64,000 nucleotides of DNA from Actinomycetota bacterium (GCA_036556385.1 DATBJQ010000090.1:7057-71056), one strand, 5' to 3'; positions 4,711 to 44,632 are shown, counted from the stretch's first letter. The notes: a model not told the origin generated them from the sequence alone. Numbers and translations: made by a program.

Positions 4711-5388
4711 ATGGACATGGGCGATCTCCGCGTGCTCGTCGTGGGCGACGGGACCACCTTGGCGCAGGACCTCCGACTGGTGCTCGGCCGCCGCGCCGGC
4801 ATCCGCGTCTCCGAGCCGGTGTCGGAGGCGAAGGCGGCGTTGGCCGCGGTCCTGGCGGGCCGCGCCGACCTGGTGGTCGTCGACCTCGACCACGACCCGC
4901 AGGGTCTGCCGACGATCTCGCGACTGCGTGACGGCGCGCCGCGCGTCCGGATCCTGGCGGCCGGCGGGGCGTTCGACGAGGCGGCGGCCGCGGCGGTCCT
5001 GTCCGCCGGCGGGTGCGGCCTGCTGCCGCGCTCCTACGAGCCGCAGGTCCTGACGGAGGCGTTCCGGCGAGCCGTGGACGGCGGGGCGGTGCTGCCTGAT
5101 CTCCCGGCCGATCTTCCGGCCGCCGCCCTCGGGCGGCTCCCGGTGTCCGCACACACGGCCCCGGCCGAGGACCCCTTCGCGAGCCTCACCCCGCGCGAGC
5201 TCGAGGTGCTGGAGCTGCTGGCGTCGGGCCGGTCCACCCACGAGGTGGCCGCGACCCTCGGGATCAGCGCCACGACGGTGCAGAGCCACGTCAAGAACCT
5301 CCTGGCGAAGCTCGGGGTCCACTCCAAGGTCGAGGCGGTGCGGCTCGCGTGGCGCAGCGGCGTGGTCGCGACCCCGGTCGGCGCCTGA
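4711..5388 (+). CDS. NarL/FixJ (LuxR-HTH) family response regulator with a degenerate receiver domain
   Basis: C-terminal '[45 protein letters not shown]' is a LuxR HTH. The N-terminal receiver-like fold keeps the Asp ('DLVVVDLD') but lacks the conserved Thr/Ser and Lys. Start placed at the internal Met ([11 protein letters not shown]). Confidence 0.75.
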
Positions 5389-5424
5389 TCCGCCGCGGCC
5401 GGCCACCCGGCGTAGCCTTCGACC

Positions 5425-6090
5425 ATGTCGTCTGAGCCGGTCCGCGTCCTGGCGATCGTGGGTCATCCCGTGATCGTCGGGGTCCTCCGGCTCGCGTGCG
5501 ACGCGGAGCCGTCCCTGCGGATCGTCGGCGAAGCCTTCGCGGGGACCCGGGGTCTCGAGCTCCTGCGGAAGGCGCCGGCCGACGTCGTCGTGGTGGACCT
5601 CGAGCTCGCCGAGCCGGCGGGCGTGCAGGTGGTCCGGTCGCTCCGCGAGGACGGGTACGTCGGCGGCGTGCTGGCGATCTCGGACCGGAGCGACGGGGCG
5701 ACCGTCCTGCAGGCCCTGCGATGGGGGGCGGACGGGTACCTGACCAAGGCGGACGGTCTGCGCGAGGTGGGGCCGGCGCTGCTGCGGGTGGCCCGCGGGC
5801 AACGCGTCGTCGATCCGTCGCTCGAACAGGCGGCGGTGCGCGAGCTGGGCAGGTTCGCCCGTCAGGTGCGCCAGGGGAACGACGCCGCCGGTACCGTGAC
5901 CCCCCGGGAGCGCCAGATCCTGCAGCTCCTGGCCGAGGGCCTCACGATGCGGCAGGTCGCACGCCGTCTCGAGATCTCGCCGCGAACCGTCGAGACCCAC
6001 GTGGCCAAGCTGTATCGGAAGCTCGACGTGCGCACGCGCGTGCAGGCGATCGCGCGGGCGGCATCGATCGGGCTGATCGACCTCGAGTGA
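5425..6090 (+). CDS. NarL/FixJ (LuxR-HTH) family response regulator lacking the acidic Mg-binding pair in the receiver
   Basis: LuxR HTH 'VTPRERQILQLLAEGLTMRQVARRLEISPRTVETHVAKLYRKLDV'. The receiver has Asp (VVVVDLEL), Ser and Lys (YLTK), but beta1 is 'LAIVGHPV' with no DD. Confidence 0.8.
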   Translation: MSSEPVRVLAIVGHPVIVGVLRLACDAEPSLRIVGEAFAGTRGLELLRKAPADVVVVDLELAEPAGVQVVRSLREDGYVGGVLAISDRSDGATVLQALRWGADGYLTKADGLREVGPALLRVARGQRVVDPSLEQAAVRELGRFARQVRQGNDAAGTVTPRERQILQLLAEGLTMRQVARRLEISPRTVETHVAKLYRKLDVRTRVQAIARAASIGLIDLE

Positions 6091-6190
6091 CCGCCCCCGG
6101 GCTCAGGAGCGGTCGCCGGAACGCCGATGACGCCGGTGAGGCCCCGTCACCCGGGCCCGATCGGCCGAGTAGGCTGCGCAGGGAGCACGC

Positions 6191-6898
6191 GTGAGCAGAC
6201 GAGACACCCCCCCGACGACCGCGCCCGGTCCGCGACGGCGGCTCGGTGTGATCGTGGTCGATGCCCTGCCGGTCGTCCGTGCCGGGCTCCGGGCGCTGAT
6301 CGAGGAACGCCCCGACCTCGAGGTGCTGGGGATCGCGGGCAACGCCACCTCCGCGCTCGAGGGCATCGCGAAGGTCCGTCGCTCGCGCGTGACCGTCCTG
6401 GTGGGACTCGGGCTCACCGGTGAGCACGACGCCTTCTGGCTGATCCGCACCGTCCGCGAGCGGTTCCCCGGGCACGCCGTGCTGGCGGTCGGGGCCAACG
6501 CGGACCCGGCCGTGGTGAGCCGCGCCCTCTTCGTGGGCGCGGACGGCTTCGTGGACAAGAACGTCGAGCCGGCCGCGTTCGTCGACGCGATCCACCGGGT
6601 GGCGGAGCGCGAGATGGTGCTGGCCGGCCCCGCGACCGGCACGGTCGGGCAGATCGCGATGGGGATCGAGGCGCGCCGCGACCTGGAGGCCCGCCTCACC
6701 GACCGGGAGCGGCAGGTCCTGTCGGTGGCCGCCGAGGGCCTCACCGCCCGCGAGATCGCCGACCGGCTCGGGGTGCGGGAGCGGACGATCACGACCCACC
6801 TCGCACGGATCTACGGGAAGCTGGGCGTCGGGAACCGCCTGGCCGCGATCCAGACGGCGACGCGGACCGGGATCGTCACGGTCGGCGCCGCCGAGTAG
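6191..6898 (+). CDS. NarL/FixJ (LuxR-HTH) family regulator with a pseudo-receiver (phospho-acceptor Asp apparently replaced)
   Basis: LuxR HTH 'LTDRERQVLSVAAEGLTAREIADRLGVRERTITTHLARIYGKLGV'. The receiver-like N-terminus has 'TVLVGLGLTGEHD' where the phospho-acceptor Asp should be. Confidence 0.75.
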   Translation: MSRRDTPPTTAPGPRRRLGVIVVDALPVVRAGLRALIEERPDLEVLGIAGNATSALEGIAKVRRSRVTVLVGLGLTGEHDAFWLIRTVRERFPGHAVLAVGANADPAVVSRALFVGADGFVDKNVEPAAFVDAIHRVAEREMVLAGPATGTVGQIAMGIEARRDLEARLTDRERQVLSVAAEGLTAREIADRLGVRERTITTHLARIYGKLGVGNRLAAIQTATRTGIVTVGAAE

Positions 6899-33428: not shown

Positions 33429-34397
33429 GTGATCGCGTGCCACTGGATCGGGTCGGGCGGCATCGGACCGCCCGAGGACCCCGAGCGGATCGCGACGGCA
33501 CCGCCCGAGGAGGGCGCGTGGCTGTGGTACGACGTGCAGGATCCCACGGTCCAGGAGCTCACGGCGCTCCAGGAGCGGCTCCACCTCCACCCGCTCGCGA
33601 TCGAGGACGTCCGGCACCGCGGCCAGCGGCCCAAGGTCGACCTCTTCGACCACCATTGCTTCGTCGTGATGCGCCCCCTGGGCGTGTCGCCCGGCGGCGA
33701 TGTGGTGGACATGGAGGTGCAGGTGTTCGCTTCCACCGACTGGCTCGTCACGGTGCGGTTCACCCCGGCGTTCGACCTCCGCAGCACGCTCGATCGCTGG
33801 CGGGCCCGGTCGCCCGAGCCGGGTCCGGCCGGCGCCCTGTACGCCTTGATCGACGAGGTCGCCGACGGCTACCTGGGGATCGTGGAGCACCTGGAGGACC
33901 ACGCGGACGACCTGGAGGACCAGGTGTTCGGTCGCGGCGCGGTGGGGGACGACGAACGCACCCTGCAGGCGCGGATCCTGCGCCTGCGCCGCGAGGTGGT
34001 GCGGATGCGCCGGTTCGCGATGCCGCTGCGGCAGGCCCTCGACCTGCTGATGGATGACGGCCGGTTCGTGCCGGAGCACCTCGTCCCGTACTACCGCGAC
34101 GTCTCCGAGCACCTGCTGCGGTCGGTCGAGCTCTCCGACAACGTCCGCGACATCCTGACCACGATCCTGGAGATCCGCACCGCTCAGGCAGCCAACCAGC
34201 TGAACGAGGTGATGAAGAAGCTCACGGCGTGGGCCGGCATCATCCTCGTGCCCACCCTGATCGCCGGGATCTACGGCATGAACTTCCGCGACATGCCGGA
34301 GCTCCGCTGGCATATCGGGTACCCGGTGGCGATCGGCATGATGGCGGCCTCGGCCGCCGTCCTGTACTGGATCTTCAAGAAGCGCGGGTGGCTCTGA
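33429..34397 (+). CDS. corA: Magnesium/cobalt transporter CorA
   Basis: Cytoplasmic funnel domain plus two C-terminal TM helices with 'YGMNF' (GMN motif). The basic C-terminus 'FKKRGWL'. Confidence 0.85.
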   Translation: MIACHWIGSGGIGPPEDPERIATAPPEEGAWLWYDVQDPTVQELTALQERLHLHPLAIEDVRHRGQRPKVDLFDHHCFVVMRPLGVSPGGDVVDMEVQVFASTDWLVTVRFTPAFDLRSTLDRWRARSPEPGPAGALYALIDEVADGYLGIVEHLEDHADDLEDQVFGRGAVGDDERTLQARILRLRREVVRMRRFAMPLRQALDLLMDDGRFVPEHLVPYYRDVSEHLLRSVELSDNVRDILTTILEIRTAQAANQLNEVMKKLTAWAGIILVPTLIAGIYGMNFRDMPELRWHIGYPVAIGMMAASAAVLYWIFKKRGWL

Positions 34398-36612: not shown

Positions 36613-37164
36613 TCAGCTCCAGGAGCTGAACCGGTCGCGATCCTCCTCGGCGTCCTCGTACTCGATCGCGACCAAGGTGCTGGTCGCCTGGATGCCCGGG
36701 ATCTGGTGGATCTGGTCGAGCACCACCCCGCTCGCGATCTCCCACGGTTGGGCGACGCAGGTGACCAGGTCCCAATCGCCTCCCAGGACCGCGACCCCAG
36801 CCACATCGGGCATCTCGACGAGGCGCTCCGCGATCCCGCCTGCCGCGCCGGCCTCGGCCCGGATATGCACGTAGCAGGCGTCGGCGATCATCGGCGGCGG
36901 CTTGGGCCCGCCGAACCCCGTGATCCCGATCCGGTCGGGGGGGACCACCGGGGCGGTCACGGTCCGGACCACCCCCGGGATGAAGTGGACCTCGCCGAGC
37001 ACGACCCTGGCGATCGTGGCCAGATCGGGTCCCTCCGCGTGGACCAGCACGTCCCACTCGCCGACCACGGGGAGGGCTCGATGGACCCCCTGCTTGGTGG
37101 AGAGGCCGGCCATCACGTCACCCATCCGACCGGGCTCCACCCGCAGGTACACGAAGGCATCCAT
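36613..37164 (-). CDS. Stand-alone tandem Lrp/AsnC ligand-binding (RAM) domain protein, with no HTH
   Basis: Two copies of the AsnC C-terminal fold ('MDAFVYLRVEPGRMGDV...EWDVLVHAEGPDLATIARVV' and 'YVHIRAEAGAAGGIAERL...DWDLVTCVAQ'). Start at 37164. The upstream part of the ORF track is shadow. Confidence 0.6.
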   Translation of the reverse strand: MDAFVYLRVEPGRMGDVMAGLSTKQGVHRALPVVGEWDVLVHAEGPDLATIARVVLGEVHFIPGVVRTVTAPVVPPDRIGITGFGGPKPPPMIADACYVHIRAEAGAAGGIAERLVEMPDVAGVAVLGGDWDLVTCVAQPWEIASGVVLDQIHQIPGIQATSTLVAIEYEDAEEDRDRFSSWS

Positions 37165-37226
37165 GGGCGCAGGGTAGGGGGCGTGACCCCTCCGCTCAAG
37201 CGTTCCGGGCAGCGGCGGCCCGGGAG

Positions 37227-38423
37227 CTACGCCTCGGCGGGGACGGGCTGCTCGCCGCACAGGTCGAGCAGCTCCGCCTCGCCCTCCTCGGGTCCCACGG
37301 AGATCAGCCGGTCGCCGGCGGCCAGGACCAGGGTCCCTCGCGGACGGTAGATCCACCGCTGACCTCGCTGGATCGCCAGGACGAACATCCCCGTCTCGGT
37401 CTCGAGTCGGAGCTCCTTCAGGGAGCGGCCGTCCGCGGGCGATCCGGGCTGCACGACCGTCTCGGCACTGGTCTCCTCCGTCTCCTCGAGGGCCATCTGC
37501 ACCACCGGGTGCAGCGGCTCGCCCTGCTCGACGTACCACGTCATGTCGCGGGCCGCGTCGCAGATCGACTCGGACGCGCTCGCGAGGCGGATCAGCCCCC
37601 GCAGCTCGTCGACGTGCCGGGCCTCGGGGGCCGCGCGCAGCACCCACGACTCCAGCTCGTCCTCGAGCCGGTCGCTGCGCGACTCCAGGGCGCCGACCTC
37701 GGCCGCGAGCGAGCGGTTGTTGAACAGGATCGAGGAGTAGGCGAGCCCGACCGCGGCCTCGGCGAGGTCCTTCATCTCGACCAGGATGTCGACGGCCCGA
37801 TCCAGCTCCGACAGCGGCGGCAGGTCCTCCGAGCCGTCGGTGGGCAGCCGGGGGGCGCCCGCGAGCTCCCGGACCAGGTCCACCCCCTCCTCGGGACCAC
37901 GGACCAGCAGCACGTCCCGCGACGAGATCACGTCGTCGGGGCCGGGATCGAACTCCCAGTCGGTGCCGCTGCGGATCGCCATGACCCACATGCCGGTCTC
38001 GGTCGGCAGGGAGAGCTCCCGCAGGCTCCGCCCGATGATCGGGGCCTCGTCGCGGACCTTCACGCGTGCGGTGATCTCGTCGGCGTGCCGCAGGTCGGGT
38101 CGCAGCGTGTCGGGGATCCCGAGCCGGGCGGCGACGACCCGCGCGATGTCGGCCGCGGCGTCGCCCACCTTCTGGATCGCGTCGGCGATCCAGAGCACGC
38201 CCGCCATCCCTTCGGCGTCCTCAGGGCTCCGCGCCGCCAGCATCGCGATCGTGCGCAGGCGACGCAGGTACCGTCCCATCTGCTCGTCCAGCCGGTCGAC
38301 CTCGCGCGCGAGCTTCTCCTCGTTGAAGAAGACGGCCGCGTACGCGAGGTCGACCATCAACTCGGAGGCGTCCTTGAGGACGACGAGCAGATCCTTGACG
38401 TTGTTCGGTTGGTCGCTGTCCAT
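37227..38423 (-). CDS. Cytoplasmic regulator with tandem [PhoU-like helical domain – TrkA_C] modules
   Basis: Start 'MDSDQPNNVKDLL' is 5 nt after the upstream channel gene's stop. Two PhoU-type helical bundles ('DLAYAAVFFNEEKLAREV', 'DLAEAAVGLAYSSILFNNRSLAAEV') are each followed by a TrkA_C-like domain ('IIGRSLRELSLPTETGMWVMAIRSG...VLLVRG', 'DGRSLKELRLETETGMFVLAIQRG...RLISVG'). Confidence 0.7.
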   Translation of the reverse strand: MDSDQPNNVKDLLVVLKDASELMVDLAYAAVFFNEEKLAREVDRLDEQMGRYLRRLRTIAMLAARSPEDAEGMAGVLWIADAIQKVGDAAADIARVVAARLGIPDTLRPDLRHADEITARVKVRDEAPIIGRSLRELSLPTETGMWVMAIRSGTDWEFDPGPDDVISSRDVLLVRGPEEGVDLVRELAGAPRLPTDGSEDLPPLSELDRAVDILVEMKDLAEAAVGLAYSSILFNNRSLAAEVGALESRSDRLEDELESWVLRAAPEARHVDELRGLIRLASASESICDAARDMTWYVEQGEPLHPVVQMALEETEETSAETVVQPGSPADGRSLKELRLETETGMFVLAIQRGQRWIYRPRGTLVLAAGDRLISVGPEEGEAELLDLCGEQPVPAEA

Positions 38424-38428
38424 GACGG

Positions 38429-39670
38429 TCAGATCACCCCAGATATTGCCATGACGAACAGGATCGCCCATACCCCCGCCAGGTCCATCACGCTGGTGAT
38501 GATGGGCACGCCCTGGTTGTCGGGGTCGAGGCCGAGTCGGTACGTCAGCACGGCGAGCGCGTAGCCCCCCACCAGCGTGATCGGGGTCACGAGCAGCCCG
38601 GCCCCGAGCGTGAGCGCGGCGAGCGTCGTGAACGACGGCATGTGCGGCAGCCCGGTGGCCGTCCCGAACGCCCAGCCGAGCGATCCGATCGCGGCGAAGA
38701 TCACGATCGCGAGGCCGAGGACGATCCCCGCATCGACCAGGGTCGGCGTCTCCGGCCGGCCACGAGGGGTGATGACCCCGATCTCGAGCTTCGAGGTGGT
38801 GCGCGAAGAGAAGATGCCGCCCAGCGCTCCGGCCTGCGAGACGAACGGTGGGATCAGCGCCAGGAGCACGGGCGTCGCGCTGAGCTCCGAGAGCCGGGCC
38901 TGCTCCAGGGCCCCCGCCGCGACGTCCAGGATCGGCGTCAACAGGATCGTGGCGGTCATCTCCATCACGATCCGTCGCACGGTCGCGTCGTGGGCGCGGT
39001 AGCCGGCCACGGTGCAGACGACGGCGGCCACGAGGCAGAGCGCCGCGAGGACCGTCGTGAGCGCCCCGAGGTCCACGAGGGTGGAGGCGAGGAACAGGCT
39101 GGGGATCGTGGTCATGTCTCCGAGGGCGGTGACCATGGGGGTCGAGACCGCGTCGAGGTCCCAGTCCAGCCGCGTCGACAGCGCGGACAGTCCGACGGTC
39201 ACCAACAGCACGAGGATCGACCCGAGCGTGCCCCCGAGGACCGAGATCACGAGGAGCTGGCGCAACGAGATCACGGGCTGGCCCGTGATCTCCGCCGCGA
39301 ACCTCGTGAGGACGGCGAGCCACAACGCCGAGGAGAACGTGGTCAGGATCGCGACGTCGACGTTGCGCCGGAGCACCCCGCCCGGGCGCAGGTCCAGGGT
39401 CAGGATCCCGGCCGCCTTCGCGGTGCCCAGGCGCGCCCCGATGGCTCCGAAGATCGTCCCCTTCATCCCGACCGCGGCGGGGATCAGGACGAGCAGACCC
39501 GGGAGCTCCTCGAGGGTGCCGGTGAGATGGGCGAGCGTCAGGCCCGCGAGGAAACCCGCGACGGTGCTGAGGACGAGCGCGACCAGGCCCTGGCGGAAGG
39601 TCCTTCGCTCGGACCGCCAGTAGCCGAAGAGCCGCGCCGCGCGGCGCGCGAGGGCGCGTGGGCGCGCCAT
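38429..39670 (-). CDS. Tandem MgtE-type transmembrane channel (SLC41-like) lacking the cytosolic N/CBS domains
   Basis: Two internal repeats each carry MgtE-TM motifs: 'IPAAVGMKGTIFGAIGARL' and 'IPPFVSQAGALGGIFSSRTTS' (compare MgtE 'P..SGMGGNTGSQ...R'), plus 'STPMVTALGDMTTIP' and 'GVPIITSVMDLAGVW' (compare MgtE 'SSPLITTVVDVTG'). Confidence 0.65.
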   Translation of the reverse strand: MARPRALARRAARLFGYWRSERRTFRQGLVALVLSTVAGFLAGLTLAHLTGTLEELPGLLVLIPAAVGMKGTIFGAIGARLGTAKAAGILTLDLRPGGVLRRNVDVAILTTFSSALWLAVLTRFAAEITGQPVISLRQLLVISVLGGTLGSILVLLVTVGLSALSTRLDWDLDAVSTPMVTALGDMTTIPSLFLASTLVDLGALTTVLAALCLVAAVVCTVAGYRAHDATVRRIVMEMTATILLTPILDVAAGALEQARLSELSATPVLLALIPPFVSQAGALGGIFSSRTTSKLEIGVITPRGRPETPTLVDAGIVLGLAIVIFAAIGSLGWAFGTATGLPHMPSFTTLAALTLGAGLLVTPITLVGGYALAVLTYRLGLDPDNQGVPIITSVMDLAGVWAILFVMAISGVI

Positions 39671-39810
39671 CGAGACTCCTTCATGGGGTCACCTGCCTCG
39701 TATGCCATCACGCAGACCCTTCGGGCCCCGGGCAGTATGGCGGGAGGCGGTCGGGAGGGCAAGCCTTCGGTCCTCGGCCTCGACCTTCGCCCTCGGGTCT
39801 GGGCCCTCGA

Positions 39811-40828: not shown

Positions 40829-41740
40829 ATGCGACGGCTACACTCGTGCGCCATGACGAGCGGGTCGGTCGACGAGCCCGGAGCGCGCGGCCTCGCGGCC
40901 GTGGAGGGGCTCTCCGCGGGTCCCGTGATGGTGATCGGCGGTGCCGAGGACAAGCTGCGGGACCGCGTGATCCTGAACCGGTTCGCCACGTACGCGGGCG
41001 GCGCGGACGGACACGTCGTCGTGATCTCCACCGCGTCGTCGCTCGGCGATGAGGCCACGGCGGTCTACGGAACGATCCTGGGGGAGCTCGGGATCGGTCG
41101 CGTGAGCGGGCTGCGGCCAGAGGAGCGGGAGGCGGCGGACGATCCCGCAGCCGTCCGCCAGGTCGCGGAGGCCACCGGGGTCTTCCTCACGGGGGGCAAC
41201 CAGTCGCGGCTGACGCAGGTGGTGGCGGGAACGCGGCTGGGCGACGCGATCGCGAACGCCCACGACCGCGGCGCGGTGCTGGCCGGCACCAGTGCCGGCG
41301 CCAGCGCGATGGCCACCCACATGGTGGCGTTCGGGAGGACGGGACCGACGCCCAAGAACCGCATGGTCCAGCTCTCGGCTGGGCTCGGCATCCTGCACGG
41401 CCTCGTGATCGACCAGCACTTCGAGCAGCGGGGGAGGATCGGGCGGCTGCTGGCTCTGGTGGCCCAGTCGCCGTCGCTGCTCGGCGTCGGGATCGACGAG
41501 GACACGTGCGCGATCGTCTTCGCCGATCAGACGCTCACCGTGATCGGGAAGGGCGCCGTCACGATCGTGGACGGCCGCAACGTCACCACCGACGCGTATC
41601 GAGGAAAGGGGTATAAACCGCTCATGGTCTCGGGTGCGGTCCTGCACTCGCTCCCGTCCGGCTACTGGTTCGACCTTCGCCGGAGGGTGCTGCTGGCAGG
41701 ACCCCACCAGCCGGACCTCGAGCGAGAGGCGTCGGAGTAG
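40829..41740 (+). CDS. cphB: Cyanophycinase (peptidase S51)
   Basis: 'VMVIGGAEDK', 'GVFLTGGNQSRL' and 'LAGTSAGASAM' (the catalytic Ser in GxSAG). Immediately upstream of cphA. Confidence 0.85.
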   Translation: MRRLHSCAMTSGSVDEPGARGLAAVEGLSAGPVMVIGGAEDKLRDRVILNRFATYAGGADGHVVVISTASSLGDEATAVYGTILGELGIGRVSGLRPEEREAADDPAAVRQVAEATGVFLTGGNQSRLTQVVAGTRLGDAIANAHDRGAVLAGTSAGASAMATHMVAFGRTGPTPKNRMVQLSAGLGILHGLVIDQHFEQRGRIGRLLALVAQSPSLLGVGIDEDTCAIVFADQTLTVIGKGAVTIVDGRNVTTDAYRGKGYKPLMVSGAVLHSLPSGYWFDLRRRVLLAGPHQPDLEREASE

Positions 41741-44632
41741 GTGGCAACGACCCGGAAGCGTTCCTCCGCAACGAACACGAAGGCTGCCCGAGCGAAGACG
41801 AAACGCGAGCCGGCCGCGGCCAAGCCGAAGCTGTCCCCCGACCTGCAGGTGCTCCAAACCCAGGTCTTCCGCGGACCCAACTACTGGTCGTACGAGCCCT
41901 GCATCCGCATGCTCGTGGACCTCGGCTCGCTCGAGCACTGGCCCTCCAACACGATCCCCGGGTTCAACGACGCGCTGCTCGCCTTGCTGCCCGGTGTGGC
42001 CGAGCACTCGTGCTCCCTGGGGAAGCGGGGCGGGTTCGGGGAGCGGCTGCGTGACGGCACCTGGCTCGGCCACGTGGCCGAGCACGTGGCGCTCGAGCTC
42101 CAGCGCGAGTCCGGCGCCCACATCTCACGGGGGAAGACGCGCAGCGCCGGGCAGCCCGGCGTGTACAACGTGATCTACGGCTACGCCGAGGAGCGGGTGG
42201 GGCTGGCCGCCGGCTCGCTCGCCGTCCGCCTCCTGAACCACCTCGTGCGCGCGGAGGACGGCTTCGACTTCGACGCGGAGCTGGAGCGGCTGATCCTGCT
42301 GGCCGAGCGGCGTCAGTTCGGCCCCTCGACCCAGGCGATCGTGGACGAGGCCCTGAGCAGGGACATCCCGTGGATGCGGCTGAACGAGCACTCGCTGGTC
42401 CAGCTCGGTCAAGGGGCCTACCAGCAGCGGATCCGGGCGACGATGACGTCGAAGACCGGCGCCCTCTCGGTGGACATCGCGCAGGACAAGAAGATGACGA
42501 ACCGCCTGTTGGCGGCCGCGGGGCTCCCGGTCCCGCGCAGCGAGGTGGTCCGCGTCGAGGACGACGCCGTGACCGCCGCCAAGCGGATCGGGTTCCCGGT
42601 CGTGGTGAAGCCCCTCGACGGCAACCACGGCCGCGGGGTGGCGCTCGATCTGAAGACCGAGCGAGCCGTCCGGACCGGGTTCAAGCGCGCGCTCAAGGAG
42701 AGCCGCCGCGGGGACGTCGTCGTCGAGACGTACGTGACCGGCAACGACTACCGCGTGCTCGTGATCGGCGGGCGGATGGTGGCGATCGCCGAGCGGGTGC
42801 CCGCCCACGTCGTCGGCGACGGCGAGCACACGGTCACCGAGCTCGTCGAGCTGACGAACCAGGATCCGCGGCGCGGGATCGGCCACGAGAAGGTCCTGAC
42901 GCGCGTGCGGGTCGACGACGCCGCGACCGATCTGGTGAAGAAGCAGGGGTTCGCGCTCGACGACGTGCCGCCCGCGGACACCATGGTCAAGCTCGCCGCC
43001 ACCGGCAACATGTCGACCGGCGGGATCTCGATCGACCGGACCTGGGACGCGCACGAGGACAACGTGGAGATCGCCGAGGAGGCCGCCCGCGTGATCGGCC
43101 TGGACGTGGCGGGGATCGACTTCATCGCGCCGGACATCTCCCATCCCGTCCGGGAGACGGGGGGCGCGATCGTCGAGGTGAATGCCGCGCCGGGGTTCCG
43201 GATGCACACCCACCCCACCGAGGGCGAGCCGCAGTACGTGGCGAAGCACGTCGTGGACCTGCTGTTCCCGCCGGGGACGCCGTCGCGGATCCCGATCGTG
43301 GCGGTCACCGGGTCGAACGGGAAGACCACGACGACGCGCATGATCTCGCACATCTTCCGCGGGATGGGCCGCCGGGTCGGGATGACCACGACCGACGGCG
43401 TCTACATCGACGAGCGGCTCGTGAAGCGGGTCGACGCCAGCGGGCCGAAGTCGGCCCAGATGGTGCTGCAGAACCCGCGCGTCGACTTCGCCGTGTTCGA
43501 AGTTGCCCGCGGCGGGATCCTGCGCGAGGGCCTCGGCTACGAGCGCAACGACGTCGGCGTGGTCCTCAACGTGACGGGCGACCATCTGGGGCTGCGAGAG
43601 ATCGAGACGCTCGAGCAGCTCGCAGGTGTCAAGCAGGTCGTGGTGGAAGCCGTGCCGCGCAACGGGTGGGCCGTGCTGAACGCGGACGACCCGCTCGTGC
43701 TCGAGATGCGGCGGCACTGCGGCGGCAACGTGATCCTGTTCACGATGCAGGACAAGCATGACCTGGTCGACCGGTGGGTGCGCCGCGGCCGCAAGGCCGT
43801 CGTGCTCGAGTCGAGCGATCGCGGCGAGATGATGGTGATCCGCGAGGGCCGCCGGTCGATGCCGATCGCGTGGGTCCACACCCTCCCGGCCACGTTCGAG
43901 GGCAAGGCCCGGATGATGGTGCAGAACGCGATGGCGGCCGCCGCGGCCGCGCACGTCGCCGGCGCGCACCTGCACGACATCCGCCAGGGCCTCCGCTCCT
44001 TCACGACCTCGATCTACCAGGCGCCGGGACGGTTGAACGTCTTCGACCTGGATGGCGTGACGGTGGTCCTCGACTACGCCCACAACGCCCATGGCCTGGA
44101 GACGCTCGGCGACTTCACCGAGCGGCTCGCGGCGGATCGTCCGACCGGGGGCTCGCGTCCCGGCGAGGCATCCTGGTCGGCGAACCTGCGCGTTGCCTCG
44201 GTGGCGACCGCCGGGGATCGCCGGGACGACGACATCCGGGACCTCGGCCGCGTCGCCTCCCGCTACTTCGACGAGGTGATCATCCGCGAGGACCGGAACA
44301 CGCGGGGTCGCGAGCGCGGCGAGACGGCCGCCCTGATCATGGAGGGGATCCGCGAGGGCCAGGCGGCCGGCGGCCGGGCGGGCCATGCCGAGATCGTGCT
44401 CGACGAGATGGACGCCGCGCGCAGGGCGCTCGACCGGGCGCGGCCCGGCGACCTCGTGGTGCTGTGCGTCGACTACGCCACCGAGACGTACCGGGAGCTC
44501 GAGGCGCGGCGTGGGGTGGCCGCCCCGAGCGCCCTGCGCGGGTCGGAGGACGGGCAGTTCGAGTCGGTGGGCGGCGATCCGGACATCGTCGGCCACCGGG
44601 CGGGGAACGGCTCGGCCGGCCCCGCCGCCTGA
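41741..44632 (+). CDS. cphA: Cyanophycin synthetase (N domain + ATP-grasp + Mur-ligase-like domain)
   Basis: 'LQTQVFRGPNYWSYEPCIRM' (N domain). ATP-grasp 'KRIGFPVVVKPLDGNHGRGV...DYRVLVIGGRMVAIAERVPAHVVGDG'. M domain 'IVAVTGSNGKTTTTRMI...LNADDP...DYAHN'. GTG start directly after the cphB stop. Confidence 0.9.
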   Translation: MATTRKRSSATNTKAARAKTKREPAAAKPKLSPDLQVLQTQVFRGPNYWSYEPCIRMLVDLGSLEHWPSNTIPGFNDALLALLPGVAEHSCSLGKRGGFGERLRDGTWLGHVAEHVALELQRESGAHISRGKTRSAGQPGVYNVIYGYAEERVGLAAGSLAVRLLNHLVRAEDGFDFDAELERLILLAERRQFGPSTQAIVDEALSRDIPWMRLNEHSLVQLGQGAYQQRIRATMTSKTGALSVDIAQDKKMTNRLLAAAGLPVPRSEVVRVEDDAVTAAKRIGFPVVVKPLDGNHGRGVALDLKTERAVRTGFKRALKESRRGDVVVETYVTGNDYRVLVIGGRMVAIAERVPAHVVGDGEHTVTELVELTNQDPRRGIGHEKVLTRVRVDDAATDLVKKQGFALDDVPPADTMVKLAATGNMSTGGISIDRTWDAHEDNVEIAEEAARVIGLDVAGIDFIAPDISHPVRETGGAIVEVNAAPGFRMHTHPTEGEPQYVAKHVVDLLFPPGTPSRIPIVAVTGSNGKTTTTRMISHIFRGMGRRVGMTTTDGVYIDERLVKRVDASGPKSAQMVLQNPRVDFAVFEVARGGILREGLGYERNDVGVVLNVTGDHLGLREIETLEQLAGVKQVVVEAVPRNGWAVLNADDPLVLEMRRHCGGNVILFTMQDKHDLVDRWVRRGRKAVVLESSDRGEMMVIREGRRSMPIAWVHTLPATFEGKARMMVQNAMAAAAAAHVAGAHLHDIRQGLRSFTTSIYQAPGRLNVFDLDGVTVVLDYAHNAHGLETLGDFTERLAADRPTGGSRPGEASWSANLRVASVATAGDRRDDDIRDLGRVASRYFDEVIIREDRNTRGRERGETAALIMEGIREGQAAGGRAGHAEIVLDEMDAARRALDRARPGDLVVLCVDYATETYRELEARRGVAAPSALRGSEDGQFESVGGDPDIVGHRAGNGSAGPAA

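Follow-up and report, generated by a model that had tools for sequence, protein, structure and literature searches.

A membrane protein with two MgtE-type transmembrane (TM) repeats (gene A) and a soluble protein with PhoU-like and TrkA_C domains (gene B) are encoded side by side in Actinomycetota and archaea, in 76 of 80 species genomes and 55 of 66 informative metagenome loci, a real conserved module beyond what chance would give. Together, the two proteins probably make up a two-component channel that conducts divalent cations, Mg2+ being the likeliest, and is gated in trans. Here, we report an analysis of this pair in a 64,000-nucleotide stretch of an uncultured Actinomycetota bacterium (GCA_036556385.1, DATBJQ010000090.1:7057-71056; hereafter, the window), where it is followed by a third gene (gene C), all on the minus strand.

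Prokaryotes have two main channels for Mg2+ uptake, of which MgtE is one; in its canonical form, an N domain, a CBS pair and a plug helix serve as a sensor of Mg2+/ATP. To our knowledge, all mechanistic work on MgtE gating has concerned this built-in N/CBS sensor. MgtE homologues without the sensor number in the thousands, with about 2,600 in one survey (bioRxiv 10.1101/2025.05.26.656215), and their control was not addressed in the literature that we found. A conserved, dedicated partner protein would offer a concrete and testable answer for the control of the tandem MgtE class.

The membrane protein

Gene A (positions 38429-39670, minus strand) encodes a 413-aa MgtE-like membrane protein with 11 TM helices, namely, two 5-TM MgtE repeats and a linker TM helix. 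A ribosome-binding site, GAAGGAG (39676..39682, minus strand), could be read from the sequence 5 nt upstream of the ATG; it sits at the 3' end of the 140-nt gap that separates gene A from a glycosylase gene upstream. Pfam MgtE (PF01769) was matched in two stretches (78.3 bits; cut-off, 27.6) and no other family was; outside the TM repeats, Pfam and NCBIfam gave no match to an N domain, a CBS pair or a plug helix. The two halves can be aligned with each other (27% identity; E=1e-10). The AlphaFold model (pLDDT 91.6) has helices in the order 5+1+5, with TM1 starting at residue 22 and both repeats within one chain, and its overall fold is confident (pTM 0.88). In a single-chain structure search, one half superposed on the TM domain of Thermus thermophilus MgtE (TtMgtE; 4u9l_B; TM-score on target, 0.71), the sole good structural match of the model. 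The preliminary description of the window had proposed a 413-aa tandem MgtE-TM protein without N or CBS domains and had asked whether it might score as a different family; the two Pfam stretches, the internal repeat and the structural match all bear out its assignment.

Beyond the repeats, the cytoplasmic face carries only a short, very basic N-terminal helix (net charge, +5), and a fused cytosolic domain was absent from all 150 of 150 cluster representatives of gene A. Having no N/CBS module, the protein would not sense cytosolic Mg2+/ATP in the manner of canonical MgtE. The repeats are joined by the linker TM helix (aa 203-224; 38999..39064, minus strand), which is helical in the model and hydrophobic in sequence (ALTTVLAALCLVAAVVCTVAGY) and which would place both repeats in the same membrane orientation. 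At loci with two half-channel genes (matching profile positions 21-199 and 231-412), the first of the two lacks the linker segment.

Each repeat contains a TM5 aspartate. D396 of repeat 2 (codon at 38483..38485, minus strand) aligns with TtMgtE D432, the family profile "...DPDN..IP..TS.MDL.G" being matched to TtMgtE "VDPALVSNPLVATLSDVTG", and D185 of repeat 1 (39116..39118, minus strand), which lies opposite D396 in the alignment of the repeats, is its counterpart via the internal duplication. Both are invariant among 33 gene A homologues (25-71% identity). The profile reached only E=0.15 against the TtMgtE TM domain, so the sequence is far from canonical MgtE. In TtMgtE, D432 belongs to the Mg1 pore site, mutation of which abolishes conductance (PMC5882242). 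The motifs given in the preliminary description proved only roughly right: both halves contain the P-x-x-T-x-x-x-D core of its S-x-P-x-x-T-x-x-x-D-x-x-G (P178..D185 and P389..D396), but its PxxxGMxG occurs in the first half (P64...G71), and the second reads PPFVSQAGALGG instead.

The two aspartates and family membership are what suggest the ion specificity. A gene for the Mg2+ channel CorA lies within 1-4 kb in 37 of the 80 loci and 2.2 kb off in the window; the loci that bear it include Acidimicrobiia loci in which IspH, the neighbor of the module in the window's clade, was not found. As backing for a Mg2+ role, the proximity of CorA is weak, and it could also be read the other way. If CorA were the main Mg2+ uptake route, so that uptake was perhaps already covered, the pair could be a regulated secondary transporter or exporter, either a Na+/Mg2+ exchanger resembling SLC41A1 or a carrier for some other divalent cation, such as Co2+, Ni2+ or Mn2+. 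In its tandem architecture, gene A matches SLC41, of which one member, SLC41A1, has been described as a Na+/Mg2+ exchanger mediating efflux and not as a channel (PMC12941325), and the distance of gene A from canonical MgtE points the same way. We consider a secondary transporter or exporter unlikely, since both repeats retain the pore aspartate and the TM5 motif around it, each half has a fold that matches the MgtE channel domain and no sequence feature marks a Na+ site; such a protein would, moreover, alter the substrate or direction and retain the idea of regulation in trans.

The soluble protein

Gene B (37227-38423, minus strand; 398 aa) has its ATG 5 nt past the gene A TGA. As the preliminary description had it, the product consists of two units, each a PhoU-like three-helix bundle followed by TrkA_C: unit 1 (aa 1-197; 37833..38423, minus strand), whose TrkA_C/RCK_C domain completes a homologue of Pyrococcus horikoshii PH0236, and unit 2 (aa 198-398 and the TAG stop; 37227..37832, minus strand). 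Pfam matched TrkA_C (108.2 bits; best stretch, aa 321-389) and PhoU (63.7 bits) in two stretches each, and the halves are 34% identical (E=9e-34). The hexamer GGGGTG within the last codons of gene A could be the ribosome-binding site of gene B.

Both halves of gene B are homologous to PH0236. Residues 5-190 matched it (PDB 1vct) with E=6e-36, and gene B has the features of a PH0236-like unit, an N-terminal three-helix bundle with a helix of the form K-D-x-S-E-L-M-V-D-L-A-Y and then TrkA_C. Across bacterial and archaeal PhoU-TrkA_C units, the K, the L-A-Y and an E-V are invariant. The PhoU motif E-x-x-x-D (E-x-I-G/C-D-A-A-x-D) is kept in most units and is missing in the single-gene units of two loci (L084 and L092), which makes metal sensing by the helical bundle unsafe as a generalization. 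The gene B model (pLDDT 79; pTM 0.75), built on an alignment of close homologues only (at least 81% identity), matched 2bkn, 1vct and 2bko with TM-scores of 0.88-0.89 on target and full-length PhoU (1t72, 4q25 and 2i0m) with 0.70-0.75 on target over about 300 aligned columns; the RCK_C domains of MthK and KhtT were structural matches as well. In this moderately confident model, the bundles pack in PhoU style as a six-helix bundle. The protein is strongly acidic (pI 4.45; 77 acidic versus 43 basic residues).

Linkage of genes A and B

Among the 80 species genomes (gene A homologues of 35-72% identity), the 76 with gene B immediately downstream of gene A on the same strand include Rubrobacter taiwanensis, Acidimicrobiia and Euzebyaceae. 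Of the four exceptions, one (L044) has a second gene A paralogue and then the contig end, and in an Acidimicrobiia locus (L080) two TrkA_N+TrkA_C genes follow gene A in place of gene B. As an independent anchor, 80 metagenome loci with a single-unit PhoU-TrkA_C gene were used, of which 14 were too short and 66 informative; in the 55 of these with an adjacent MgtE-TM gene, the arrangement varied. The two genes were divergent at 22 regulator-anchored loci, with a co-directional channel gene upstream at 4 and a channel gene downstream at 2, and the channel was split into two half-genes at 16 (Pfam MgtE was matched on a 189-aa half). All states of fusion and fission were found, including a four-gene operon of two half-channels and two half-regulators. 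A PurP gene beside gene A marks some loci as archaeal; in the one archaeal locus compared at residue level (L083), one of the separate unit genes matches the N-terminal half of gene B and the other its C-terminal half. A RAM-fused membrane protein adjoins the regulator pairs of L168 and L172, and a faint ACT match lies upstream of the gene A homologue in L089.

The link is not obligate. An MgtE-like neighbor was absent from 11 archaeal regulator pairs with enough flanking sequence, and a PhoU-TrkA_C neighbor was missing for five of nine distant gene A homologues. Divergence of the two proteins is also out of step, as in L058, where gene B is 83% identical and gene A only 42%, so any interface between them must depend on few conserved features.

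These last observations, the NCBI name of gene B ("potassium channel family protein") included, are what one would expect if gene A were an unregulated or self-regulated MgtE-type channel and gene B an independent cytosolic sensor that shares its operon, whether in PhoU-like phosphate or metal signaling or as a spare RCK_C subunit of a K+ system. We hold an independent gene B to be distinctly improbable. Adjacency survives changes of order, strand and fusion or fission in bacteria and archaea, a persistence that is hard to account for without a common function. In the window, the pair has no pst, trkH, ktrB or K+ channel gene beside it. The protein gave no Pfam match to the RCK_N (TrkA_N) Rossmann domain of TrkA/KtrA, with all NCBIfam TrkA scores far under their cut-offs, and against the true PhoU equivalog (TIGR02135) it scored 45.7 bits, short of the cut-off of 130.25. 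Because the pairing recurs across Actinomycetota and archaea, the gene B protein is probably the detachable regulator of the gene A channel.

The tandem RAM protein

Gene C (36613-37164, minus strand) starts 62 nt after gene B on the same strand, with no terminator-like site between the two. It encodes 183 aa and is, as first described, a stand-alone double RAM (Lrp/AsnC ligand-binding) protein: Pfam AsnC_trans_reg was matched in two stretches, and the halves are 30% identical (E=1e-8). Pfam and NCBIfam gave RAM domains only and no match to an HTH domain, so the database name "DNA-binding Lrp family transcriptional regulator" is misleading. Among solved proteins, it comes closest to the stand-alone RAM proteins 2cvi and 2e1a and to the RAM half of PH1519. 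Its family is small (366 members), with lengths of about 183 aa throughout.

Gene C was found at about 35 of the 80 gene A loci, all from close relatives and always directly after gene B. It was missing from L005-L010, L012, L014 and L015, whose gene A is about 70% identical to that of the window, and from all distant lineages examined and the archaeal operons. It thus stands outside the conserved A-B module and is confined to a narrow actinobacterial clade, and the conservation of gene order that the preliminary description had put forward as a check holds for A-B and fails for its three-gene unit. An A-B-C unit in which gene C is an obligatory sensor of a ligand, such as an amino acid, can be nearly discounted, for the family is tiny and clade restricted and more than half of the A-B loci have no gene C; on the other side stand its strand and spacing, its invariable place after gene B and the RAM- or ACT-like domains seen near the system elsewhere (L168, L172 and, faintly, L089). 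Gene C is a clade-specific small-ligand-binding protein, which may give the A-B pair a further input or be unrelated to it.

Proposed mechanism

In the two-component channel that we favor, gene A would hold two copies of the MgtE pore domain in one chain as a pseudo-dimer (5 TM, linker TM, 5 TM), in which D185 and D396, one per repeat, would take the place of the D432 pair at the pore site of the TtMgtE homodimer. Gene B would be an acidic, soluble pseudo-dimer, each three-helix bundle of which bears an RCK_C ligand-binding domain, and could dock 1:1 onto the cytoplasmic face of gene A with the pseudo-twofold axes aligned. Binding of a cytosolic ligand to gene B would then open or close the gene A pore, with a gating logic like that of KtrA on KtrB and KhtT on KhtU. 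Candidate ligands are Mg2+ or another cation at the acidic sites and, at the two RCK_C domains, a nucleotide (for example, ATP or c-di-AMP). As precedent, KtrB/D and KhtU are controlled by trans-acting RCK_C subunits, to which c-di-AMP binds, and Bacillus subtilis MgtE has been reported as a c-di-AMP target (PMC10636490). The 5-nt gap between genes A and B suggests coupled translation and a fixed stoichiometry. We infer the A-B contact, the ion, the transport direction and the ligand from these features and parallels. A channel regulated in trans had been the central idea of the preliminary description; a sensorless gene A and a co-directional, nearly abutting and conserved gene B fit such a design, and only the obligatory role of gene C drops out.

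Novelty and significance

The same description had called the arrangement undescribed, which is true of part of it. The tandem class appears in the 2025 preprint, JGI has family names for both genes ("mgtE-like transporter" for A and "uncharacterized protein with PhoU and TrkA domain" for B) and the PH0236 crystal structure, which represents one unit of gene B, dates from 2005; no paper linking the tandem MgtE family with the PhoU-TrkA_C family was found in the literature, which included the preprint in the portions available. A bolder reading, which we advance tentatively and would not yet bet on, is that A-B stands for a class of ligand-gated channels for divalent cations that is widespread in Actinomycetota and many archaea and has not been described, with a hetero- or pseudo-dimeric MgtE pore and, in lieu of the usual N/CBS sensor, a detachable PhoU-fold/RCK_C subunit that is likewise a hetero- or pseudo-dimer. 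If so, Mg2+ flux would be tied to a signal other than Mg2+/ATP on CBS domains; the PhoU bundle might, for example, report phosphate or metal status, or RCK_C might respond to nucleotides such as c-di-AMP. The pair would then serve as the nearest tractable model for SLC41 transporters among prokaryotes.

Were the two-component channel confirmed, the principle that an RCK subunit gates a membrane transporter would reach from K+ systems to the Mg2+-channel fold, the PhoU fold would gain a role beyond phosphate transport and the orphan structure of PH0236 would gain a function. The natural series of fusions and fissions points to the stoichiometry: in archaea, two half-channels go with two half-regulators, and in this actinobacterium, one channel goes with one regulator. 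The series also supplies several constructs for structural work and bears on the topology and mechanism of human SLC41.

Comparison with known systems

SLC41A1-3 share the architecture of gene A, one polypeptide with two MgtE-type TM repeats, no CBS domains and 10-11 TM helices, and gene A has the SLC41-type layout of two same-orientation repeats joined by a linker TM helix; unlike gene A, SLC41 proteins have a long cytosolic N terminus. We know of no PhoU- or RCK-type partner subunit for SLC41. According to a 2026 review, the SLC41 structure is not fully determined, and PDB searches found no solved one. Gene A falls in the "TM-TM" MgtE class of Zhao et al. (bioRxiv 10.1101/2025.05.26.656215), with tandem TM domains and no N/CBS, in bacteria and archaea; the available portions of that preprint count the class and list it as SLC41-like and mention no partner protein or gene neighborhood.

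Canonical MgtE (T. thermophilus; PDB 2ZY9 and 4U9L) has the 5-TM pore domain (PF01769), the DP...P..T...D..G motif and the TM5 aspartate in common with gene A. Its pore is made of two copies of the domain (a homodimer in TtMgtE), whereas gene A holds both in one chain, has an eleventh TM helix and lacks the N domain, CBS pair and plug helix.

PH0236 of P. horikoshii (PDB 1VCT and 2BKN/O/P), deposited in 2005 and still listed in the PDB as hypothetical or of unknown function, resembles half of gene B in being one unit of a three-helix PhoU-like bundle plus TrkA_C; it has a single unit of 205 aa, and gene B joins two diverged ones in tandem. PhoU and the PhoU domains of Na/Pi cotransporters likewise have two three-helix repeats, with the six-helix packing seen in the gene B model. 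Gene B differs from PhoU in the RCK_C domain inserted after each repeat, the equivalog score below the cut-off and the lack of pst genes nearby.

In KtrAB/TrkAH and KhtTU, as in A-B, a soluble RCK_C protein is encoded beside the membrane subunit and supplied in trans. KtrA and TrkA, which assemble into octameric or tetrameric rings, have an RCK_N Rossmann domain where gene B has a PhoU-like helical bundle, and the membrane partners there serve K+ transport with other folds, whereas the partner in A-B is MgtE-like. Transport in these K+ systems is controlled by domains that bind nucleotides, c-di-AMP or cations, the role that we propose for gene B.

Locus and gene organization

The window (G+C content, ~72%) has a head-to-tail series of three minus-strand genes: A (38429-39670, 413 aa), encoding a tandem MgtE transmembrane (TM) protein; B (37227-38423, 398 aa), encoding two units that each join a three-helix PhoU-like bundle to a TrkA_C (RCK_C) domain; and C (36613-37164, 183 aa), encoding a tandem RAM protein. 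The ATG of B stands 5 nt past the TGA of A, and the start of C 62 nt past the TAG of B. A 140-nt gap separates an HhH-type glycosylase gene from A and ends with a GAAGGAG ribosome-binding site, 5 nt 5' of the ATG of A. The A protein is identical (100%) to a database protein (P0001) of an uncultured Actinomycetota MAG. Pfam and NCBIfam matches bore out the domain make-up that the preliminary description had read in A, B, and C, and comparison of the halves showed each protein to be internally duplicated (A, 27% identity, E=1e-10; B, 34% identity, E=9e-34; C, 30% identity, E=1e-8). No M-box or other riboswitch was found in the whole window, and no sigma-70-like promoter or intrinsic terminator around A, B, and C; RNA folding of the B-C intergenic region was at the level of shuffled sequence (z=0.27).

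Membrane protein A

Pfam matched A to MgtE alone (78.3 bits, two stretches). In an alignment of 33 homologues (25-71% identity), only 12 columns were invariant, among them D185 and D396, which occupy equivalent TM5 positions of repeats 1 and 2. A PDB sequence search with A alone returned no match, and the 33-sequence profile matched the TM domain of Thermus thermophilus MgtE (TtMgtE) weakly (E=0.15), with profile '...GLDPDN..IP..TS.MDL.G' aligned to TtMgtE 'GVDPALVSNPLVATLSDVTG' and D396 opposite D432. D432 forms the Mg1 pore site of TtMgtE, and mutation of this site abolishes Mg2+ conductance (PMC5882242).

An AlphaFold model of A, built on the 33-sequence alignment, was confident (pLDDT, 91.6; pTM, 0.88) and showed a short N-terminal helix and then two sets of five TM helices, with an additional hydrophobic helix (residues 203-224) between the sets. 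This additional helix brings the chain back to its starting membrane side, so that both repeats are predicted to be oriented alike, as are the two subunits of the MgtE homodimer. The sole geometrically good Foldseek match in the PDB was one MgtE TM chain (4u9l_B; probability, 1.00; TM-score, 0.71 on target over 190 columns). MATE and flippase chains led by E value (~1e-3 to 1e-1) and were dropped as generic helical-bundle matches because of their low TM-scores (0.24-0.39) and high rmsd (13-18 Å).

Neither Pfam and NCBIfam matches nor the model showed an N domain, a CBS pair, or a plug helix in A, and none of 150 cluster representatives of A carried a fused cytosolic domain. On the cytoplasmic side, A starts with a helix of 20 residues (net charge, +5). 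The TM domain and the pore residue place A in the MgtE family, from which it departs in having no sensor domains. The conserved Asp of the D-P-D motif in the TM4-TM5 loop of A might be expected to match D418, which we take to be a cytosolic Mg2+-bridging residue of TtMgtE. This equation is not claimed here; D418 goes unmentioned in PMC5882242.

Soluble protein B

In Pfam, B gave two stretches each of TrkA_C (108 bits) and of PhoU (63.7 bits). Identification of B as a genuine PhoU or TrkA was rejected, with scores far under the cutoffs and required domains missing. The first half of B matched PH0236, a Pyrococcus horikoshii "hypothetical protein" (PDB 1vct and 2bkn/o/p), at E=6e-36, and these matches place B in a PH0236-like PhoU+TrkA_C family, neither true PhoU nor TrkA.

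The model of B (pLDDT, 79; pTM, 0.75), whose alignment consisted of close homologues only (at least 81% identity), contained two units, each a three-helix bundle followed by a beta-rich RCK_C domain, and superposed on PH0236 with a TM-score of 0.88-0.89 on target. Full-length PhoU proteins aligned with it over ~300 columns (TM-score, 0.70-0.75 on target), which suggests that the bundles of B are packed against each other as the PhoU halves are. Structural matches of the RCK_C parts were MthK and the c-di-AMP-binding KhtT. B is strongly acidic (pI, 4.45). A PhoU-type "E-x-I-G/C-D-A-A-x-D" motif occurs in most units and is missing from the single-gene units at two loci of distant A relatives (L084 and L092).

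Gene neighborhoods

Sequence searches at E<=1e-3 gave 2,769 hits for A and 4,950 for B, so that A-B pairs number in the thousands. Relatives of A were collected from one genome per species with one TM5-loop pattern (330 relatives), and the best 80 loci (35-72% identity), mostly Actinomycetota, were examined. In 76 of these best 80 of 330, the next gene downstream of A, in the same orientation, was B, including loci of Rubrobacter taiwanensis (L054, the sole cultured species represented), Acidimicrobiia, and Euzebyaceae. Among the four exceptions, L044 had a further A paralogue, after which the contig ended before a B gene could appear, and L056 and L075 (a Halobacteria MAG) had unrelated neighbors of A. 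The remaining one, L080 (Acidimicrobiia), had two TrkA_N+TrkA_C (KtrA/TrkA-like) genes after A, which may supply another RCK partner or may be unrelated neighbors.

The three-gene order proposed in the preliminary description stands for A and B and does not extend to C, which was present in only ~35 of the best 80 of 330 loci, always directly after B. C was missing from loci where A is ~70% identical to that of the window (e.g., L005-L010) and from every distant lineage, and no more than 366 members of its family could be detected, virtually all 183 aa long and from the same clade; C is treated as a lineage-specific addition that may or may not act with A-B. Its Pfam matches were to the Lrp/AsnC ligand-binding (RAM) domain only, twice, and no helix-turn-helix was found by Pfam or NCBIfam. 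Some sources name its homologues "DNA-binding Lrp family transcriptional regulator" or "AsnC-like helix-turn-helix protein"; because C has two RAM domains only and no helix-turn-helix, this annotation is doubtful and probably wrong for C and its 183-aa homologues.

In close relatives, B was more conserved (~80% identity) than A (60-70%). One locus (L058) had the gene order of the window with B 83% and A only 42% identical; its A represents a different subtype, sharing 61-63% identity with the A proteins of L072 and L078. Divergence of A and B can be uncoupled, as at this locus. The channel gene was also seen to be far more variable than the regulator at L058:5001-6203, L044:5001-7446, and L047:4-2444; L044 and L047 each have two tandem A paralogues, both ahead of B in L047. 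In three MAGs (L048, L053, and L055; ~5000-6230), the A homologue is split into two overlapping open reading frames in different frames, either by assembly frameshifts or as pseudogenes.

A CorA Mg2+ channel gene with a YGMNF motif (33429-34397, plus strand) lies ~2.2 kb from C, and 37 of the 80 genome loci (including L061, L062, L067, and L071) had a CorA homologue at a distance of 1-4 kb from A-B. The 37 include Acidimicrobiia loci at which IspH, a neighbor of the module in the clade of the window, was not found. CorA and A-B may form a Mg2+-homeostasis neighborhood, or their proximity may be coincidence. A cyanophycinase gene (40829-41740, plus strand), a conserved neighbor in many related loci, directly precedes a gene for a cyanophycin synthetase-like protein of 963 aa (41741-44632, plus strand); both were identified by eye from translation.

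In a set of nine cluster representatives more distant from A (25-35% identity), PhoU-TrkA_C genes adjoined the A homologue in three and were absent in five, and one contig was too short. Two single-unit genes were divergent from the A homologue in L083, and one single-unit gene lay directly upstream in L084 and L092. Metagenomes were then scanned with the archaeal single-unit form as the anchor, led by the L083 unit (80 loci). Nearly all 80 had two tandem unit genes, and an MgtE-TM gene was adjacent in 55; flanks were too short in 14, and 11 were flanked without such a gene. Among the 55, a full-length tandem channel lay divergent upstream (22 loci), co-directional upstream (4 loci), or downstream (2 loci), and was cut by the contig end in 11. 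At the other 16, which are low-GC loci (L117-L120, L127, L140, L143, L148, L152, L153, L155, L159, L163, L164, L166, and L170), the channel was split into two genes covering profile positions 21-199 and 231-412, each a single 5-TM MgtE domain, within an operon of four genes in which the two half-channels directly precede two half-regulators (single-unit PhoU-TrkA_C); the product of one half-channel gene is 189 aa long and has one Pfam MgtE domain. These operons imply a 1:1:1:1 stoichiometry. In L083, the only locus with separate unit genes that was compared residue by residue, the unit genes match the N- and C-terminal halves of B, respectively, which points to a former heterodimer fused into a single chain in Actinomycetota.

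Linkage of A and B genes is strong whatever the arrangement, and the association is frequent and not universal in either direction. L083, L102, and L109 have PurP (DUF1246/DUF1297) next to their channel gene, which marks these loci as archaeal. At L168 (2398-3705, minus strand) and L172 (2378-3667, minus strand), a ~410-aa polytopic membrane protein with a C-terminal RAM (AsnC ligand-binding) domain, an echo of C, is divergent from a PhoU-TrkA_C gene pair with no MgtE-like neighbor; Pfam gave no match for the membrane portion of this protein.

Proposed mechanism and comparison with known systems

In canonical MgtE, cytosolic Mg2+ bridges acidic residues of the N, CBS, and plug elements and so closes the channel (PMC5882242), whereas A retains the pore without these elements. 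B, an acidic soluble protein with two-fold pseudosymmetry, combines two kinds of domain that act as transporter regulators in other systems. KtrB/D and KhtU are gated in trans by RCK_C subunits that bind c-di-AMP, and Bacillus subtilis MgtE is a reported c-di-AMP target (PMC10636490). In the simplest model, the pseudo-dimeric pore A and the pseudo-dimeric regulator B would form a 1:1 complex, in which a ligand bound to B would control the cytoplasmic gate of A. The domain identities, internal duplications, conserved pore aspartates, and gene linkage are observed, and we infer the physical contact between A and B, Mg2+ as the substrate, the direction of flux, and the ligand. Eukaryotic tandem relatives (SLC41A1) are described as exchangers, not channels (PMC12941325).

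Database names of the A and B families are generic. No paper was found that joins the two families or gives either a tested function, and nothing relevant was found under COG1824, COG3273, K07244, PH0236, 1VCT, or 2BKN; gene-neighborhood databases may well show the link. A section of a 2025 preprint (Zhao et al., bioRxiv 10.1101/2025.05.26.656215) lists a prokaryotic "TM-TM" class of MgtE as SLC41-like and mentions no partner there; the architecture of A is that of this class as so listed. We regard A-B as a pore of the MgtE type with a probable RCK-type regulator acting in trans, and not as a categorically new system; it suggests one definite and testable way in which MgtE channels without sensors could be controlled, and it gives a prokaryotic point of access to SLC41.
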